Shown here one piece after another: positions 24,191 to 46,233 of a stretch of DNA of 64,000 nucleotides. The position numbers and the translations under genes were made by a program. Location of the stretch: sequence record MN508614.1; one strand, 5' to 3'. Origin of the DNA: Escherichia phage ES12. The stretch's first letter is position 1, and each line of letters begins with the position of its first letter. The notes under the pieces were generated by a model. It was given only the letters and a program-made list of their open reading frames with translations. It searched no databases and had not been told where the DNA came from.

Positions 24191-24343
24191 GTGATTTCCT
24201 CTTGCCTACTAATGGACCATCAGGAATTTTGTTTTCCTGGATATATTTCTCATTTTCTTCCATCATTTTACTACCAATTTTAAGAAGCAAATCCATTGCT
24301 TCATTTGCTTTTGCTTTGGCCTCTTCTAACGTCATATCTTTGC

Positions 24344-26342: not shown

Positions 26343-26860
26343 TAATAACCTCGGTCTTGACGAGCGAAGTTTTCAGCATTTTTCAGATAATAAAGTTTAA
26401 AGATTTCTTCAGCCGTAAGACCGAGGCCTTGGAACATGTTCAGAACGAAATGAAGAATATCAATCATTTCGAATTTAATTTCCAACTGGTCTTGTGGAGA
26501 CAAATCAGTAATCAGAGTTTCACGTCGTTCACCATGTTGAGCTTTCCAAGGCTTCCATACAGCAGATGCATCTTTTTCACCATTGCTCATACCACCAAGA
26601 GAAGTCAATAGTTCGCGGAATTCATCATCAATATAATCTTTCTGATTACGCAGCCAATCAACAACTTCACCCGCAGTAGCCAAATCATCAGGATGACGGT
26701 TATATTCAGGTTTATCTTTAGCTAAACGAACCTGCAGAGATTTCTGCATATCAAGCATAACTTGCAACGGGTCTTTTTCATCACCGAGAATATCCCAGTA
26801 TTCATTTTGAGCTTTATCAGCGCCTTCAATCAGTTGTGAACATTCATTAAAGTATGCCAT
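26342..26860 (-). CDS. 56: dCTP pyrophosphatase (dCTPase/dUTPase) gp56
   Basis: 172 aa from MAYFNECSQLIEGADKAQNEY..., MazG-like; the track ORF extends 31 codons upstream. Confidence 0.85.
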   Translation of the reverse strand: MAYFNECSQLIEGADKAQNEYWDILGDEKDPLQVMLDMQKSLQVRLAKDKPEYNRHPDDLATAGEVVDWLRNQKDYIDDEFRELLTSLGGMSNGEKDASAVWKPWKAQHGERRETLITDLSPQDQLEIKFEMIDILHFVLNMFQGLGLTAEEIFKLYYLKNAENFARQDRGY

Positions 26861-30985: not shown

Positions 30986-31342
30986 TTAAAAGAATTTAAA
31001 CTTTTTCTTTGACCTTTTATTAAATGCATCTTGTAGTTGCATTGTAATACATTTTTCTACATGAGGAGCTAACTCAGCTTTTCTTTCTTGGTCAAGAACA
31101 GCAAAGTCCATTACGACTTTTCCATCAACCCAATCTAATTTTGTCACATACACAATGTGTGTAGAACCATCTTCTAGTTTAATGACAATCTCCTGGATAA
31201 CATTTTCCATAGCGGATTTAATTATCTTAAGAGACTTATTAAAAAGACGTTCTTTTCTTTCTTCTTCCCCCTCCGAAGAGGGGGATTCATCGATAATTTC
31301 TAAATCTAAATCATCTTTACTCATTAAATTCTTCCATATCAC
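30986..31342 (-). CDS. 40: Hypothetical protein, 118 aa (gene 40 position)
   Basis: Sits between uvsX and 41 where T4 gene 40 lies; assignment by position only. Confidence 0.5.
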   Translation of the reverse strand: MIWKNLMSKDDLDLEIIDESPSSEGEEERKERLFNKSLKIIKSAMENVIQEIVIKLEDGSTHIVYVTKLDWVDGKVVMDFAVLDQERKAELAPHVEKCITMQLQDAFNKRSKKKFKFF

Positions 31343-32498
31343 TTAACTGCTCGAGGTCAGTTTCTAAATCAGCTGCTGATTTACTTTTACTTTCTGGAGA
31401 TTTAAATTTTTCAACCTTTGAGTTAATCAATTCATCAACTTCAGCTTCAACAATTTCATTACTATCAATAGCACCTAACTGATAAGCACGTTTAATAGCA
31501 TCTCGGAATGGTTGATGCTTAAATAAAGGACCCCAGAATGTAGTGCAGTTGGTATCTTTTGCACGCCAAGATTTTTCTTCGCGAATCATCTCGCCGGTTT
31601 CTTCATCAAGAAATTCACGAGCATACCAACCATTTTTAGGTTTTACTACAAATCCTAATTCTAGAGCCATATCTAACAATCCAGAATAAGGATCAATACC
31701 ACCGTCAAATTTAACATCAATAAAGAATTTACTTTTTTCTTTAACGGTACGAGATTTTTCTACATTTAGAACAAATTGATACCCCTGAAGATCAGAACCA
31801 TCTTTAATCTGACGCTTACCGATAATGAATACAGTATCAGCCGAATACATTACGCCTGTACCACCTGTCATCACGGTTTTACTAAACATTTCAATTGTTT
31901 CAATTGTATGGTTAACCGCAACACATGGAATATTTTTAATGCTAAAGTAAGGAGTAACAATACGGAATAATGACTTCAGTGATTTAGCACGAGTCATATC
32001 TGCCACAGATTTTTCATTCAAGGCATCTTCCGTTTCTTTCTTAGAAGCCATATTACCGATTGAGTCGATGAATACAATAACTTTTTCACCACGCTCAATA
32101 GCTTCAAGCTGATTCACCATATCAATTTTCAGCTGTTCAACTGACTGGATTGGCGTATGAATTACTCGTTCCGGGTCAACTCCCATGGATCGCAAATAAG
32201 CTGGAGTAATACCAAATTCACTATCATAGAATAGACAAACCGCGTCAGGATATTTGTTCAAATATGCCGCAACCATAGTCAAAGACATATTTGATTTAAA
32301 GTGTTTAGAAGGCCCTGCGAAAATAGTTAAACCAGACTGCATACCGCCATCAATCGCACCAGAAATAGCAATATTCAGCATTGGAATTTTTGTACGGATT
32401 ACATCCTTTTCATTAAAGAATTTAGATGTAGTCAGTTCAGCAGTCATTTTAGAAGTGGAAGCTTTAATCAAACGGGATTTTAAATCTGCAATAGACAT
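31317..32498 (-). CDS. uvsX: UvsX recombinase (RecA-like)
   Basis: 393 aa, Walker A GPSKHFKS, acidic C-terminal tail; near-identical to remembered T4 UvsX. Confidence 0.97.
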   Translation of the reverse strand: MSIADLKSRLIKASTSKMTAELTTSKFFNEKDVIRTKIPMLNIAISGAIDGGMQSGLTIFAGPSKHFKSNMSLTMVAAYLNKYPDAVCLFYDSEFGITPAYLRSMGVDPERVIHTPIQSVEQLKIDMVNQLEAIERGEKVIVFIDSIGNMASKKETEDALNEKSVADMTRAKSLKSLFRIVTPYFSIKNIPCVAVNHTIETIEMFSKTVMTGGTGVMYSADTVFIIGKRQIKDGSDLQGYQFVLNVEKSRTVKEKSKFFIDVKFDGGIDPYSGLLDMALELGFVVKPKNGWYAREFLDEETGEMIREEKSWRAKDTNCTTFWGPLFKHQPFRDAIKRAYQLGAIDSNEIVEAEVDELINSKVEKFKSPESKSKSAADLETDLEQLSDMEEFNE

Positions 32499-32575
32499 TC
32501 ATTTTTTCCATAGGCATCATTATATTTTCCTCACTGGTTAAAGATAGAGTAATTATAACACAATAAATTTAGGCA

Positions 32576-33424
32576 TTAATCAACTGCTATTGGATGAATA
32601 GCATTAAACTTATGAAATGCTTCTGATTTTTCTTTACGTGAAACGCACATGCGAAGAACCTTTAATGGCTCGTCTTCTTCACCCAACGATTTTCGTTTTT
32701 CAATATTCGACGTTTTCCAACGAGCTTGCTCTGGAAACTCTCTATTGATTTGCTCAAGCGCTCTATTATGTTTAGAATTACTACGAATTGAACTACACCC
32801 ACCAGGAGCTTGCGCTTTTCCAGATACAACCAGATATTTGAACAAGGCCAAATGCGGATAACCTTGATTAATTAAATTGAGAAATGCATACATATCTTCG
32901 CACAAATCAATTTTTCCATACCCAATTTGTTCTGTCGTAAGTTTTCCGAGGTCATACCATGTATTCGTGAATCCATATGAATTTTCACGATAATTACCCC
33001 AAGATGAAGTAATTTTAAAAATTGGTAGACGAGCATGGCCATGATAATACCCGCAATCCATGGCATCCTCAACATATTGAATCAATTCATAGAACTGTTC
33101 ACGAGTCAATTGATTGACTTTATCTACACAACGACGGTCATCTCTTTTTCGCATTGAACTCATACGAATAGTAGTATCATCGTCAATCATCCAGATTCGT
33201 TGACCTGCATACATATCAGTAATTGCTTTACGAGTACCGGCAATTCCGTTTACATCATCAGGAATAGTTATAATTTTAGCTCTAGACCCATAGGCATCAT
33301 AATAAGCTTTTTCTTCATGTTCACGCACTATAATATGCGGTTCATAATCAGTCGGAAACATATCAAGGGCAGAAACTGCCCCTACACGCTGATAACTTGG
33401 AATTACGAATTGAATCATTTCCAC
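32576..33424 (-). CDS. DxD-motif glycosyltransferase at the beta-gt locus (candidate beta-glucosyl-HMC-alpha-glucosyltransferase)
   Basis: 282 aa with IWMIDDDTT; occupies the uvsX-42 interval where T4 has the 351-aa beta-gt. Confidence 0.6.
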   Translation of the reverse strand: MEMIQFVIPSYQRVGAVSALDMFPTDYEPHIIVREHEEKAYYDAYGSRAKIITIPDDVNGIAGTRKAITDMYAGQRIWMIDDDTTIRMSSMRKRDDRRCVDKVNQLTREQFYELIQYVEDAMDCGYYHGHARLPIFKITSSWGNYRENSYGFTNTWYDLGKLTTEQIGYGKIDLCEDMYAFLNLINQGYPHLALFKYLVVSGKAQAPGGCSSIRSNSKHNRALEQINREFPEQARWKTSNIEKRKSLGEEDEPLKVLRMCVSRKEKSEAFHKFNAIHPIAVD

Positions 33425-34155
33425 TCACCATTATAATCTTTTTTCACAATATGAGTTTCGCCAGTATTCCACCAATGATCAACCAAGTAAAAATGACGAG
33501 AATATACATGAAGACTTCCAACATTCCATATAATAGAACCTGCTTTATATTGACGAGTTGAATCGCCTGCATTCAAATCAGATACTAATTTATCTAATAC
33601 GTATTTTTGCCATGCATAATCATTACGGAATCCGAAGACCACATCATTTGAGCGCATGTTAACAACCGCATTGATTTTCTTGTCACGAATCAGGTATTGT
33701 ACTGTATTTGTACACATGAAATCTGACATGCCATCTTTATTGTAGTCAAACTGCATAGATGGACGAGTATAAATCATGATACCACGTCGAGAATCAGGAT
33801 TTTGACCAAGTTCAGCTAAACACATGTCATATTGAGCATAGTTATCTTCTGACCAGATAGCCCAACCATAATTCGAGTTAATTTCACCTTTAGAAGATGC
33901 TACTTGTTGCCAAATCTTCGGTGTTTCACCCGGAATATCTTTAACGAACAAGCTTTTAGATTTATACCATTCAAGTTCACGCTGAATGTATTCATCATTA
34001 AGAGCGCCAAAAATAAACGGTTCATCTGCTACAAATGATGCGCCAATAATTTCAATAGTTTTAACACCAGTTTTATCAACTACGAAATCTTTTTCTTTTA
34101 ATGCAAGCCCCAAATGAAGACGGATTTCTTCAACTGTCATAGAGTCACTAATCAT
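33415..34155 (-). CDS. 42: dCMP hydroxymethylase gp42
   Basis: 246 aa, thymidylate-synthase-like fold; length matches T4 gp42. Confidence 0.95.
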   Translation of the reverse strand: MISDSMTVEEIRLHLGLALKEKDFVVDKTGVKTIEIIGASFVADEPFIFGALNDEYIQRELEWYKSKSLFVKDIPGETPKIWQQVASSKGEINSNYGWAIWSEDNYAQYDMCLAELGQNPDSRRGIMIYTRPSMQFDYNKDGMSDFMCTNTVQYLIRDKKINAVVNMRSNDVVFGFRNDYAWQKYVLDKLVSDLNAGDSTRQYKAGSIIWNVGSLHVYSRHFYLVDHWWNTGETHIVKKDYNGEWK

Positions 34156-34162
34156 TTAAACC

Positions 34163-34312
34163 TCAATTGATACATTCATATTTAACTTGTAACAGTAATA
34201 AACCCCAACCTAAAATAATAGTTGGAATCATAAGAGGAACCGTTACACTATAGTATATACTTATTATAATCATCAAGATTAAAAGCAACACTGTTATAAT
34301 TTTGCTTTTCAT
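34163..34312 (-). CDS. Membrane microprotein, 49 aa
   Basis: Own translation: MKSKIITVLLLILMIIISIYYSVTVPLMIPTIILGWGLLLLQVKYECIN; its ATG overlaps the imm stop. Confidence 0.35.
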   Translation of the reverse strand: MKSKIITVLLLILMIIISIYYSVTVPLMIPTIILGWGLLLLQVKYECIN

Positions 34313-34560
34313 TCCTTCTCTCTGATGATAATTACCTGATTTGGCTGCGCAAACTTTTTAGTTTCACCTGCAATTGACCAAATAAATGTAATAAACCAAC
34401 CAATAATTGACCAGTTAAACAGTAAAGACGTGAAAAAGATTCCTACTGTCGATTTTGACCCACGCATCAAGGCGATAAACCATGGAAGCATGTATATAAT
34501 AATAGCCAACACGCCTGAAACTAAAACCATAAAAATTGAACCTGCTACTAAAGTTTCCAT
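34309..34560 (-). CDS. imm: Imm, superinfection immunity membrane protein
   Basis: 83 aa, two TM helices; length and position match T4 Imm. Confidence 0.9.
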   Translation of the reverse strand: METLVAGSIFMVLVSGVLAIIIYMLPWFIALMRGSKSTVGIFFTSLLFNWSIIGWFITFIWSIAGETKKFAQPNQVIIIREKE

Positions 34561-34958: not shown

Positions 34959-35195
34959 TCAAATGCAAGTAGTAATTACTCCAGTAGTGCTTATGCAGGT
35001 ATTACCCATTTGCACACCTAAAGATCCATTTGTATTCACATGAAGATTATCATCAATTTTAACTGATATTTTACCATTAGTGTGAATAACGGTGCTAGAT
35101 TCAATCACAGGTTGAGTATCATTTTCAACACTAACAAATGGAACTGCTGCTAATGCAACTAAACAAACTGCTAAGCATCCCATAACAATTTTCAT
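34959..35195 (-). CDS. Secreted small protein, 78 aa
   Basis: Start at MKIVMGCLAVCLVALAAVPF (signal peptide) after an early-promoter leader; the track ORF reads through the promoter. Confidence 0.55.
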   Translation of the reverse strand: MKIVMGCLAVCLVALAAVPFVSVENDTQPVIESSTVIHTNGKISVKIDDNLHVNTNGSLGVQMGNTCISTTGVITTCI

Positions 35196-35227
35196 TTCAT
35201 TCTCCAAATCCGTATCAGTAGTTGATA

Positions 35228-35290
35228 GTTGTATAGTACCATAGAAGAACAGGGATGTAAACCGTTTTGTGAAAAAATTTTTAATGAATT
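35228..35290 (-). promoter_or_regulatory. Early promoter cassette
   Basis: Minus-strand GTTTAC-(18)-TGgTACTAT, AT-rich UP, conserved leader. Confidence 0.5.
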
Positions 35291-35348
35291 CTAGAGGTCC
35301 AGAATCATCTATTTTTCCTAAGTATAGATTTATATTACTTGTATGAAA

Positions 35349-35368
35349 AAGGGACCCGGAGGTCCCTA
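35349..35368 (-). terminator. Rho-independent terminator downstream of gene 43
   Basis: Minus-strand RNA GGGACC-UCCG-GGUCCC followed by UUUUUCAU. Confidence 0.55.
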
Positions 35369-35379
35369 GATTTATTCTA

Positions 35380-38076
35380 TCAGCCAAACAGGAAGTCTAA
35401 CGAAGCTTTTTCTTCATAGTCCATACCTGCCGATTCACACATACCAGCAAGCGGTTTAACAAACGATTTTTGGAACAAAGTTGAGTAGTCAATCCAAGAC
35501 AGTACATCAGAACGAATTTCTTTTGGAAGTTCTGTACCCGACGGCCAAGCAATGCACTTATCACCAAATGGATTTCCTTCACGCAATGGAAGAACCATTA
35601 CCTTATTTCCATCCAAAATTGGAGCTACACCTAAACCGCTAACAGCTCGACGATAAGTTAGCACACCACGAATATGGAACGGACATTTAAATCCTGGCCA
35701 ACCTTTATCATCATATTTCGCTATATCGTTCGCAGTTTTTACTTCAGCAATAACTTTATAGTCAAGTTGACGATATTCTTTCTCGAAGTTCTTGTAATAT
35801 TCTTGGACAGACTCTTCACCTTCCTGAAGAATACGACGAATACTTTCTTCGAGAGCTTCTTGGACCGCTTTAGGCGTTGAACTCTGCTGAGTTTCCATAC
35901 CCATGATTTTTAGATGCGGTTCAGCAAATCGCTTATCTTCCATATCATAAACGTTCAGAGCATAACGCTTTTTCGCTTTCCAAAATCCACCAACGCCCTT
36001 TGAACCAAGTGGAGGGCAAGAAATAGCTTCACGGTCCATATGCATCAGATGCTCGCGGTTATTCATATAATCACATAACTCACGATATGCAACATCAATC
36101 ATAGGTTCCATCTTTTTCTTACCGAACTGATTCATGAATTCAACTAAATCGTTCTGCTCTTTGAATCGGTCAAGACCAACTTTTTCAATAACTTTATCTA
36201 CACAAACATATACCGAATCAGTATCACCTGCTGCGATGAAATCTTCGCCATTAGTTCCACATACTTTATTCAGATACTCATTAATTTTACGAGCAATCCA
36301 CTGAATACCGACTTGACCAAAAATTGTAATAGCAGTAGCATTTCGCAAATCATAGTAACGGAAATGAATATTACCAAGAGCACCATAAAGACTGTTAATA
36401 AGAATTTTACGGTTCAGCTGATTTGTGTTAGCAAGTGTAGCTGCTTTTTCACATTCTTCGATCAGACTATTAAGAACAGATTCAGTATAATTCGATAGTT
36501 CATTTAAGAAATCATCACTGAACTTAACATATCGTTCAACTTCTGGTTTAGTTGAACAAGACCCTGCGCCTTTCATAATAATCTTTTTAATAGCTTCGGC
36601 ATTCATTTCTTCAGCGAACATTTTCTTTTTCCAGTCTTTACGCTGGAAAAATACTTTAGCGATTTCCTTTGGAATGATACCTTCTTGATGCTTATCATAC
36701 ATCCATCCATTCGGAGAACAAGAATATTCATCACTCGGTTTAGGAGCTGTTCCTGCGATATATTCATGAATTGGATGAACTTTAAATTGTCCACGAATAG
36801 TTTCAGGACTAATGTTAACCTGACGAATAATGCTCGGATACAGAGACGTCAAGTCAAAACTCATAATATATCGACGAGCAATTGGTTTAGGTTCAAATAC
36901 AAATGCACCCGGAAAACTTTGTTTAACGTGCGAACCTTGTTGAGGAATAACCTTATGTTCACCTTTCAATGAGTTAAAAATAATAGCATCCCAAGTTTTA
37001 ATAGGACTCATTACACCAGAAAAAGGCATTTTAGCATAATAAGACATACTTAAAACTAGATCGATAAACCCGCGAATTTTATCAATTGCTTGAACTGATT
37101 CTACGTCAATGATGTTATAACTAATGTATCGTTGATGATTAGTCTCACGGAGTTTATTAATAGGACCGTCGTATGGTAATTTACCTTTTTTGGTTTCATG
37201 TTGAGCAACTGATTCCAAAGAGAATGACGGCAAATTAGTAAAAGCGAATTTCTTGTACAAATCTAAATAATCAAGAATAGATACGCCATCAATAGAATAA
37301 ATTTCTTTGCTACCGTACATATTTTGAATTAGTTTAGATTTTACCCGACCGATTGGAGAGAAACGTTTCATACTACGTTCACCTAGAATCATTTTAACGC
37401 GATTCATGATATACGGAACGTCAAATCCCTCAATATTCCAACCAGTAAAAATAGCAGGTCGTTTCTGTTCCCAGAGATTGATATATTCCATGAGCATATC
37501 ACGCTCATTATCGAATGGCATATAAATTACTCGGTCAAGAATTTCTTGAGGAACTTCATCACCACCTTCACAGTCAAGCTTAGCAGCTAACTTTGCATCC
37601 CATTTTGATACTGAACCGTACATTGAATTCAAAAGGTCGAAAACATAAAAACGATCATCAATTGAATCGTAATGAGTGATAGCATCAATTTCATATTCAG
37701 CTTTCATTGGGTCAGGAAATTTATCACCAGTAACCTCAATGTCACAGTTAGCTACACGAACAAATTTTCGGTCATAAACAATTTCTGAACCGTATGTATC
37801 ACTGATATAAGCGAGTTTAAAATCGTTCATACCGAGAGCTTCGAGACCGATGTCTTCCATTCGTTTCATCCAATCTCGAGCATCTTTCATTGATGGAAAT
37901 TTTTGAGGAGCACAATTTTTACCATAGATGTCTTTGTACTTTGACTCTTCCTTACAATGCCTAAACATAGTCGGAAGATATTCTACTTCACGAGTACGTT
38001 CCTTTCCGTTTTCATCAATATAACGTTCAACAATGTTATTTCCGACTGTTTCAATAGAGATATAAAATTCTTTCAT
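35380..38076 (-). CDS. 43: DNA polymerase gp43 (family B)
   Basis: 898 aa; length and N-terminus MKEFYISIETVGNNIVERYID match T4 gp43. Confidence 0.97.
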   Translation of the reverse strand: MKEFYISIETVGNNIVERYIDENGKERTREVEYLPTMFRHCKEESKYKDIYGKNCAPQKFPSMKDARDWMKRMEDIGLEALGMNDFKLAYISDTYGSEIVYDRKFVRVANCDIEVTGDKFPDPMKAEYEIDAITHYDSIDDRFYVFDLLNSMYGSVSKWDAKLAAKLDCEGGDEVPQEILDRVIYMPFDNERDMLMEYINLWEQKRPAIFTGWNIEGFDVPYIMNRVKMILGERSMKRFSPIGRVKSKLIQNMYGSKEIYSIDGVSILDYLDLYKKFAFTNLPSFSLESVAQHETKKGKLPYDGPINKLRETNHQRYISYNIIDVESVQAIDKIRGFIDLVLSMSYYAKMPFSGVMSPIKTWDAIIFNSLKGEHKVIPQQGSHVKQSFPGAFVFEPKPIARRYIMSFDLTSLYPSIIRQVNISPETIRGQFKVHPIHEYIAGTAPKPSDEYSCSPNGWMYDKHQEGIIPKEIAKVFFQRKDWKKKMFAEEMNAEAIKKIIMKGAGSCSTKPEVERYVKFSDDFLNELSNYTESVLNSLIEECEKAATLANTNQLNRKILINSLYGALGNIHFRYYDLRNATAITIFGQVGIQWIARKINEYLNKVCGTNGEDFIAAGDTDSVYVCVDKVIEKVGLDRFKEQNDLVEFMNQFGKKKMEPMIDVAYRELCDYMNNREHLMHMDREAISCPPLGSKGVGGFWKAKKRYALNVYDMEDKRFAEPHLKIMGMETQQSSTPKAVQEALEESIRRILQEGEESVQEYYKNFEKEYRQLDYKVIAEVKTANDIAKYDDKGWPGFKCPFHIRGVLTYRRAVSGLGVAPILDGNKVMVLPLREGNPFGDKCIAWPSGTELPKEIRSDVLSWIDYSTLFQKSFVKPLAGMCESAGMDYEEKASLDFLFG

Positions 38077-45030: not shown

Positions 45031-46233
45031 TTATTTTGTAATAATGTCAAACTGTTCTTTAAAGCAGAAGCTTGAATCTTGATGCTGATACAAAAATTCA
45101 TAAGCTTTTTCGCGTTCACGGTCATAAAGAGTTCGGTCAGATGACAGTTCTTTAATACGTTCAAATGTTGATTCCATGTCATTTTCATCAAACCAAATGA
45201 TACCGCTATCATGTGAGGTCAAAGGAGTATTATCAACACGGAATTTTAAATTTTCGCCAGTAGATTTCCAAAATACCGGAATTGTTCCACATGCACCAAG
45301 CTCGAGATGAGTATATTCTAAAGAACGTTGTAGATATTTTTTGTCCAACTTACTCAGCTGATAACCAAATCCGGATTTACTCATGCGTTCAAGCATTTCG
45401 CTATTTACATAACGGTCAAGAATTTGCGTTGGCAAATTAGGAGCAATTTTAATTTGGTCTACTTGATGAAGACGATAATACTCGTATGGAATTCCTTTTT
45501 CTTTAATAGGAATGAACGCTGGAGAACGTTCCAGACCTTCCATAATAGTACTTAGTCCTGCAGGTTTAAGATGTTTTTCGTGAAAATCAAACATCTGATA
45601 AAAACCTTTCCATGTAGTCGTACGACCAATCCAACGGTTGACATTCATGTTAATTTCAGAAACATCTTTCCAGTAGGTTGACCGAACCTTCGCAATATCC
45701 ATAGGAGGCTGAAAGTTATATACTGTCGGTGCTTCTTCAATATCATCAAACAGAGAAACAGTTTCTGGATACCATTCTTTCATCAGAACTTTATTAAAAT
45801 CACCATTATCAGAATGGCTAAAAATAACATCAGCTCGACGAACAGTTTCTTCTAATCCCAAATTTCGACGCAAAGAAAGAGAAGAATGGTCATGCTGATA
45901 AACTACAACACGAACCGAAGGTTTAATGTTATCAATAATTTTTTTATAGTTATTAATAGTGTCTTCTTCAACCGAAGTAGCAGGAACTGAATTGATAATT
46001 AGAATATCACAATCATTTACCAGCTTAAGTGTTTTATCATATTCTTTTGCCAATAAAACCGGAATTGAAAATGATTTATAATCATGCGCGCAATTACGAG
46101 TAAATGATTTATCTTTAGCATAAACCAAAGTCACTTCATGACCATTTTTAATAAACCAATCACGTTGCTCGAGTGAGAATTTTGTTACACCACAACCTTC
46201 AAGACCTCGAGCCATAAAAATACATACTTTCAT
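45031..46233 (-). CDS. a-gt: DNA alpha-glucosyltransferase
   Basis: 400 aa, ...CIFMARGLEGCGVTKFSLEQRDWFIKNGHEVTLVYAKDKSF... matches remembered T4 AGT. Confidence 0.95.
   Translation of the reverse strand: MKVCIFMARGLEGCGVTKFSLEQRDWFIKNGHEVTLVYAKDKSFTRNCAHDYKSFSIPVLLAKEYDKTLKLVNDCDILIINSVPATSVEEDTINNYKKIIDNIKPSVRVVVYQHDHSSLSLRRNLGLEETVRRADVIFSHSDNGDFNKVLMKEWYPETVSLFDDIEEAPTVYNFQPPMDIAKVRSTYWKDVSEINMNVNRWIGRTTTWKGFYQMFDFHEKHLKPAGLSTIMEGLERSPAFIPIKEKGIPYEYYRLHQVDQIKIAPNLPTQILDRYVNSEMLERMSKSGFGYQLSKLDKKYLQRSLEYTHLELGACGTIPVFWKSTGENLKFRVDNTPLTSHDSGIIWFDENDMESTFERIKELSSDRTLYDREREKAYEFLYQHQDSSFCFKEQFDIITK

Follow-up and report, generated by a model that had tools for sequence, protein, structure and literature searches.

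In phage T4, the interval between gene 42 and uvsX holds the gene for the 351-aa beta-glucosyltransferase (beta-gt, annotated b-gt), as the original prediction had said, together with segA. What occupies the syntenic place in Escherichia phage ES12, and which glucosylated forms of 5-hydroxymethylcytosine (hmC) are to be expected in its DNA? We addressed this question in a stretch of 64,000 nucleotides of that phage (MN508614.1; hereafter the window), in which the genes and motifs described below all lie on the minus strand. The list of open reading frames contains a frame at 32576-33424 that encodes 282 aa from a GTG codon and includes the sequence IWMIDDDTT. The locus is bounded downstream by uvsX (31317..32498), an open reading frame with 90.5% identity to T4 UvsX, and upstream by gene 42 (33415..34155), which encodes the dCMP hydroxymethylase that makes the hmC precursor; its product is 98% identical to T4 gp42 and has thymidylate-synthase-family matches. 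The original prediction had thus been correct about the existence of the frame, its motif and its place between uvsX and gene 42, and had overestimated the protein by two residues.

The protein almost certainly starts at the ATG at 33418; the coding sequence is then 280 aa plus stop, at 32576..33418. We preferred this codon because of an ATGA overlap with the stop codon of gene 42 (33415..33418), the placement of a Shine-Dalgarno-like sequence, and the annotation of homologues. The Shine-Dalgarno-like GGTGAG at 33424-33429 lies 5 nt upstream of the ATG, and the homologues in phages Bas39, T2 and T6 are annotated from the equivalent ATG as 843-nt or 840-nt genes, with the same overlap with gene 42. 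The GTG at 33424 was dropped as a start, as it sits within the GGTGAG sequence that serves the ATG; the two extra codons of the longer frame, GTG GAA (33419..33424), are probably outside the translated protein. Judged from the ATGA overlap, translation of the gene is probably coupled to that of gene 42.

Profile and pairwise searches identified the product. The protein matched PHROG 842, 'beta-glucosyl-HMC-alpha-glucosyltransferase' (E 7e-89, residues 2-277), and Pfam PF20691 (TAGT, TET-associated glycosyltransferase) with 38.2 bits against a gathering score of 27.5; the latter match extended over profile positions 2-205 of 205 and protein residues 5-209. It is identical to the T2 protein at 277 of 280 positions, to the T6 protein at 275 of 279, and at 279 of 280 to a Bas39 protein annotated 'hmC beta-alpha-glucosyltransferase ba-gt'. 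PF20691 is listed for nine of eleven database homologues and for neither P0005 nor P0008, and NCBIfam offered a model neither for this protein nor for the alpha-glucosyltransferase (alpha-gt) described below. The frame is no chance occurrence: in addition to the PHROG match, it was found full length in 474 records of the phage collection at at least 90% nucleotide identity, and it is syntenic with the annotated ba-gt genes of relatives, again between gene 42 and uvsX. By its modest score of 38 bits, we judge that the window protein is a divergent branch of the TAGT family. We therefore hold with high confidence that the gene (ba-gt, also ggt or TAGT) encodes a T2/T6-type beta-glucosyl-HMC-alpha-glucosyltransferase of the GT-A-fold DxD type that extends alpha-glucosyl-hmC. 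The gene is not new: it is widespread, its near-identical orthologues have been characterised by experiment, and it is said to have been first cloned by Winkler and Rueger, in Nucleic Acids Research in 1993. What our analysis itself shows is which gene this is, its fold class and synteny, its conserved motifs, the genes that accompany it, and that beta-gt is missing.

Homology to T4 beta-gt was ruled out by Pfam, blastp, tblastn and hhalign. The window protein did not match PF09198, the T4 beta-gt family, on which T4 beta-gt itself scores 325 bits, and blastp against T4 beta-gt found no relation (best E 2.2). When T4 beta-gt was searched against the 64-kb window by tblastn, nothing was found at E<=1e-3 (best match E 1.4). 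A profile of nine family members aligned to T4 beta-gt using hhalign with a probability of 0.2%; this is the kind of profile comparison that the original prediction had proposed, and its reading of the gene as something other than T4 beta-gt stands.

To describe the fold, we aligned nine sequences drawn from the eleven database homologues, down to 32% identity (alignment A1), and placed the conserved columns on a predicted structural model. Invariant columns include I6, P7, S8, Y9, R11, D79, D80, D81, D93, D121 and D175. Five of these fall in the N-terminal IPSYQR motif (residues 6-11; 33386..33403), a GT2-like nucleotide-sugar binding strand and loop that is modelled with a pLDDT of 88 and that aligned with IPTYNR of the GT2 beta-1,3-glucosyltransferase 9jma in a PDB profile search, at a sub-threshold E of 0.26. 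D79-D81 (codons GAC GAT GAT; 33176..33184) form the DxD motif for metal and nucleotide-sugar binding; they are invariant in the nine homologues, come after strand E74-77 of the model and line up position by position with the DDD of 9jma in that sub-threshold search. The protein has the single Rossmann-like alpha/beta/alpha nucleotide-sugar-binding domain, with the DxD motif after a central beta strand, that characterizes GT-A enzymes, and lacks the two-domain organization of the GT-B fold. The GT-A fold that the original prediction had suggested from the DDD motif was thereby borne out.

At the start of helix 174-184 of the model lies E174-D175 (in 'CEDMY'; 32894..32899), a candidate 'ED' motif of an inverting GT-A enzyme whose position resembles that of the ED/TED motif of GT2 enzymes; D175 is thus a candidate catalytic base. 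The acceptor-binding site and the catalytic base are uncertain because the C-terminal half of the model is only moderately confident: pLDDT falls under 50 at residues 129-140 and 191-211. GT2-like enzymes are inverting, in keeping with the formation of a beta linkage from UDP-alpha-glucose. On the strength of the fold class and of the beta linkage in the known product, the enzyme is most likely inverting, and by analogy it would depend on a divalent metal. Published models of TAGT proteins likewise have a GT-A fold and form a sister group to GT2 (PMC13216743). Searches of the PDB and the literature returned no solved structure or biochemical characterisation of a purified T-even TAGT.

An enzyme that extends alpha-glucosyl-hmC needs a supply of this acceptor, and the window encodes one. 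The alpha-gt gene that the original prediction had described as intact lies at 45031..46233 and encodes a 400-aa DNA alpha-glucosyltransferase that matches PF11440 with 785 bits (E 9e-237) and shares 91% identity with T4 alpha-gt across all 400 aa. A homologue of the gp56 dCTPase, which excludes dC from phage DNA, was found at 26345..26860 by tblastn with T6 gp56 (71.5% identity, 172 of 172 aa). The co-occurrence of alpha-gt with ba-gt and the absence of a T4-type beta-gt both hold in the window. For the reaction, and for its effect on defence systems, we draw on published work on near-identical orthologues. Deletion of ba-gt from T6 yields DNA with only alpha-glucosyl-hmC (PMC11078745). In Tequatroviruses that encode an alpha-GT and a TAGT, liquid chromatography–mass spectrometry (LC-MS) detected hmdC, alpha-glucosyl-hmdC and alpha-gentiobiosyl-hmdC and no beta-glucosyl form, in proportions either of about 1:2:2 or with hmdC making up about a third and the gentiobiosyl form the other two thirds (PMC13390438).

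These data are consistent with a pathway in which gp42 and gp56 would give rise to phage DNA with hmC, and alpha-gt would attach an alpha-linked glucose to it. The ba-gt enzyme, whose gene is co-transcribed with gene 42, would bind UDP-glucose with the help of the IPSYQR strand at its N terminus and of a divalent metal coordinated by D79-D81. It would add a second glucose, beta-1,6 to the first and with inversion of the anomeric configuration, to give alpha-gentiobiosyl-hmC. We predict that the DNA of the window phage is a mix of hmC, alpha-glucosyl-hmC and gentiobiosyl-hmC, without beta-glucosyl-hmC. The T2/T6-like chemistry put forward in the original prediction is supported by the near-identity to the T2 and T6 enzymes, the intact alpha-gt and the lack of a beta-gt in the window. 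The ratio of mono- to di-glucosylated residues cannot be predicted from the sequence. We found no homologue of the Dam methyltransferase in the window using T2 dam as the query. In the Durham collection, it was in the Tequatroviruses without a Dam-like gene that gentiobiosyl-hmC made up about two thirds, which is a correlation only.

Three other accounts of the gene were weighed against this one. As ba-gt fills the same slot as T4 beta-gt, it could be a primary glycosyltransferase that glucosylates bare hmC directly and replaces beta-gt functionally; many phages carry a solitary TAGT with neither alpha- nor beta-GT (NAR 2026), and some distant members may use other acceptors. Two results from phages with both enzymes make this highly improbable: LC-MS of Tequatroviruses with an alpha-GT and a TAGT revealed no beta-glucosyl-hmC (PMC13390438), and the T6 deletion mutant keeps alpha-glucosyl-hmC and loses gentiobiosyl-hmC alone (PMC11078745). 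The enzymes so studied share about 99% identity with the window protein. The same identity to T2 and T6 enzymes with a gentiobiose product, together with a gp42 of the hmC type that is nearly that of T4, speaks against transfer of another sugar or use of another donor. Phage DNA glycosyltransferases are diverse, and RB69-like phages arabinosylate their DNA (PMC13390438), so arabinose, as in Mosigvirus, would be an example. The arabinosylation genes of Mosigvirus come with a sugar-nucleotide biosynthesis cluster, of which our searches, aimed at other genes, gave no sign; for the window enzyme we regard another sugar or donor as extremely remote.

The gene could also be inactive or hypomorphic in the window phage, leaving DNA with essentially no modification beyond alpha-glucosylation, as in T2 or weaker still. 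Lesions in ba-gt do occur in sequenced laboratory stocks, among them an amber codon in one T6 record, loss of part of the DDD in another and R11H in T2 (see below). The window copy is nevertheless full length and keeps every residue that is invariant in A1, including R11 and D79-D81, and its single departure from the consensus of close relatives is I30, a position at which they have V; we consider an inactive gene very unlikely. Nothing measured contradicts a T2/T6-type ba-gt.

The T2 and T6 alleles deserve description in their own right. The T6 records MH550421 and AP018814 each have one different ba-gt lesion and are otherwise identical over 865 nt. In MH550421, codon 10 (window 33389-33391) is changed from CAG to the amber codon TAG, and the coding sequence is annotated from M20 with 261 aa; in AP018814, a 3-nt deletion removes one Asp from the family-invariant DDD (window 33176-33184). 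These lesions could be the outcome of laboratory-stock drift or of selection. Both independent T2 records (AP018813 and MH751506) have R11H and P251S. Codon 11 (window 33386-33388) encodes an R within the IPSYxR motif that is invariant in all nine sequences of A1, and the window allele has R11. The reported gentiobiosyl content is about 5% for T2 and about 72% for T6. R11H might be a candidate explanation for the low value in T2, a hypothesis from sequence comparison; the broader idea, that allelic differences in ba-gt set the mono- to di-glucosyl ratio of hmC and so account for both values, is possible and, in our judgement, rather doubtful. If it were true, the window allele, with R11, an intact DDD and full length, would predict a T6-like, mostly gentiobiosylated genome. 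The hypothesis concerns T2 more than the window.

How the locus came to differ from that of T4 can be read in part from the DNA. The DNA is homologous to T4 as far as 32486 on the side of uvsX, and again from 33433 on that of gene 42, limits that define the swapped cassette as ba-gt with its 77-nt 3' spacer; the T4 counterpart is 1.9 kb of beta-gt and segA. No segA homologue was found in the 64-kb window. The 3' end of ba-gt, its last codons and stop (32574..32598), survives in T4 as a 25-nt relic at 24238-24262 of NC_000866, between beta-gt and segA and directly 5' of the segA start. The relic is identical at 24 of 25 positions (blastn-short E 4e-7), and its longest exact run is 18 nt, whereas none of 200 shuffles exceeded 14 nt. 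We take this as a sign that ba-gt was formerly present here in the T4 lineage and was displaced by a cassette of beta-gt and segA. Over the 1.2 kb and the 25 kb around ba-gt, the window shows 100% identity to Escherichia phage ES26, a Tequatrovirus whose record (MN508618) has no annotation.

The spacer between ba-gt and uvsX (32499..32575) contains TGCCTAA, 11 nt and TATAAT (at 32552-32557) on the minus strand, an arrangement that resembles a T4 MotA-dependent middle promoter and marks a possible promoter of this type. Just upstream of uvsX, on the same strand, is a strong GAGGAAA ribosome-binding-like site before a short out-of-frame ATG ATG start. A generic sigma-70 scan did not flag the putative middle promoter in 32499-32575, and a generic promoter and terminator scan of 32300-34400 yielded no more sites than were found in shuffles. 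A terminator-like hairpin is present at 33364-33384, within the ba-gt coding sequence. On the far side of gene 42, between imm.1 and the DNA polymerase gene 43, we observed a small open reading frame (34959-35387, minus strand) with a hydrophobic, signal-like N terminus (MKIVMGCLAVCLVALAAVPF...). T4 has only a non-coding spacer there, and Bas39 and T2 have short hypothetical genes at this spot, that of T2 mislabelled 'tail tape measure protein'; the interval is a variable small gene slot.

Against the 474 records with full-length ba-gt, T4-type beta-gt was found in 29 records of the phage collection, and those listed were T4 isolates and derivatives together with RB55 and RB59. An NAR 2026 survey found alpha-GT and beta-GT together in only 6 of 753 GT-encoding phage genomes, most of which pair an alpha-GT or a beta-GT with a TAGT. 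T4 is the exception and the ba-gt arrangement is the common Tequatrovirus state, unusual only from a T4-centred view. Public annotation is uneven: many records label ba-gt 'hypothetical protein', 'glucosyl transferase' or, wrongly, 'putative beta-glucosyltransferase'; RB55 and RB59 have the reverse error, their true T4-type b-gt being called 'beta-glucosyl-HMC-alpha-glucosyl-transferase'; and AP018813 and AP018814 have many plainly wrong product names in the ba-gt region. The main value of our result is correct annotation, and it resolves no open question.

Knowing whether a phage makes gentiobiosyl-hmC or beta-glucosyl-hmC helps to predict its behaviour against modification-dependent defences and is relevant to the choice of T4-like phages for therapy or biocontrol. 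In vitro, the glycosylase Brig1 excises alpha-glucosyl-hmC and spares gentiobiosyl-hmC; deletion of ba-gt from T6 turns its DNA into a Brig1 substrate in vitro and makes the phage more sensitive to this enzyme (PMC11078745). DNA of a T6 ba-gt deletion is also a substrate for the deglucosylating enzyme BapA, which is unable to deglucosylate gentiobiosyl-hmC (bioRxiv 10.64898/2026.02.25.707755). The general claim of the original prediction, that the modification affects sensitivity to such systems, agrees with the Brig1 results. Its choice of GmrSD as the test system is less apt: GmrSD reportedly attacks alpha-, beta- and gentiobiosyl-hmC without distinction (PMC13216743), so that plating on GmrSD hosts would discriminate poorly, and a sharper distinction would be expected from Brig1-type glycosylases or BapA.

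Among known systems, the ba-gt genes of T2 and T6 are closest, with the same 280 aa, position, ATGA overlap with gene 42 and companion alpha-gt; the differences are point differences only, and the window lacks R11H and P251S of T2, Y40N, D55G and R106H of T6, and the lesions of the two T6 records. The TAGT family is matched over the whole domain model above threshold and shares the GT-A fold with DDD, although the substrate of the T-even members is hmC that gp42 makes as a nucleotide, and not TET/JBP-oxidised 5mC. GT2-like GT-A enzymes (AvpGT 9jma, TarP 6h1j, TarS 5tze and BcsA 9fmv) are only 10-15% identical, with a best E of 0.26 that is not significant, and act on lipid, polysaccharide or teichoic acid, whereas the acceptor of ba-gt is a sugar on duplex DNA. 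T4 beta-gt (PF09198, GT-B) occupies the same slot between gene 42 and uvsX, uses the same donor, UDP-glucose, and likewise forms a beta linkage. It is, however, unrelated to ba-gt in sequence and fold, shares its slot with segA where the window has none, and acts on bare hmC, whereas ba-gt acts on alpha-glucosyl-hmC.
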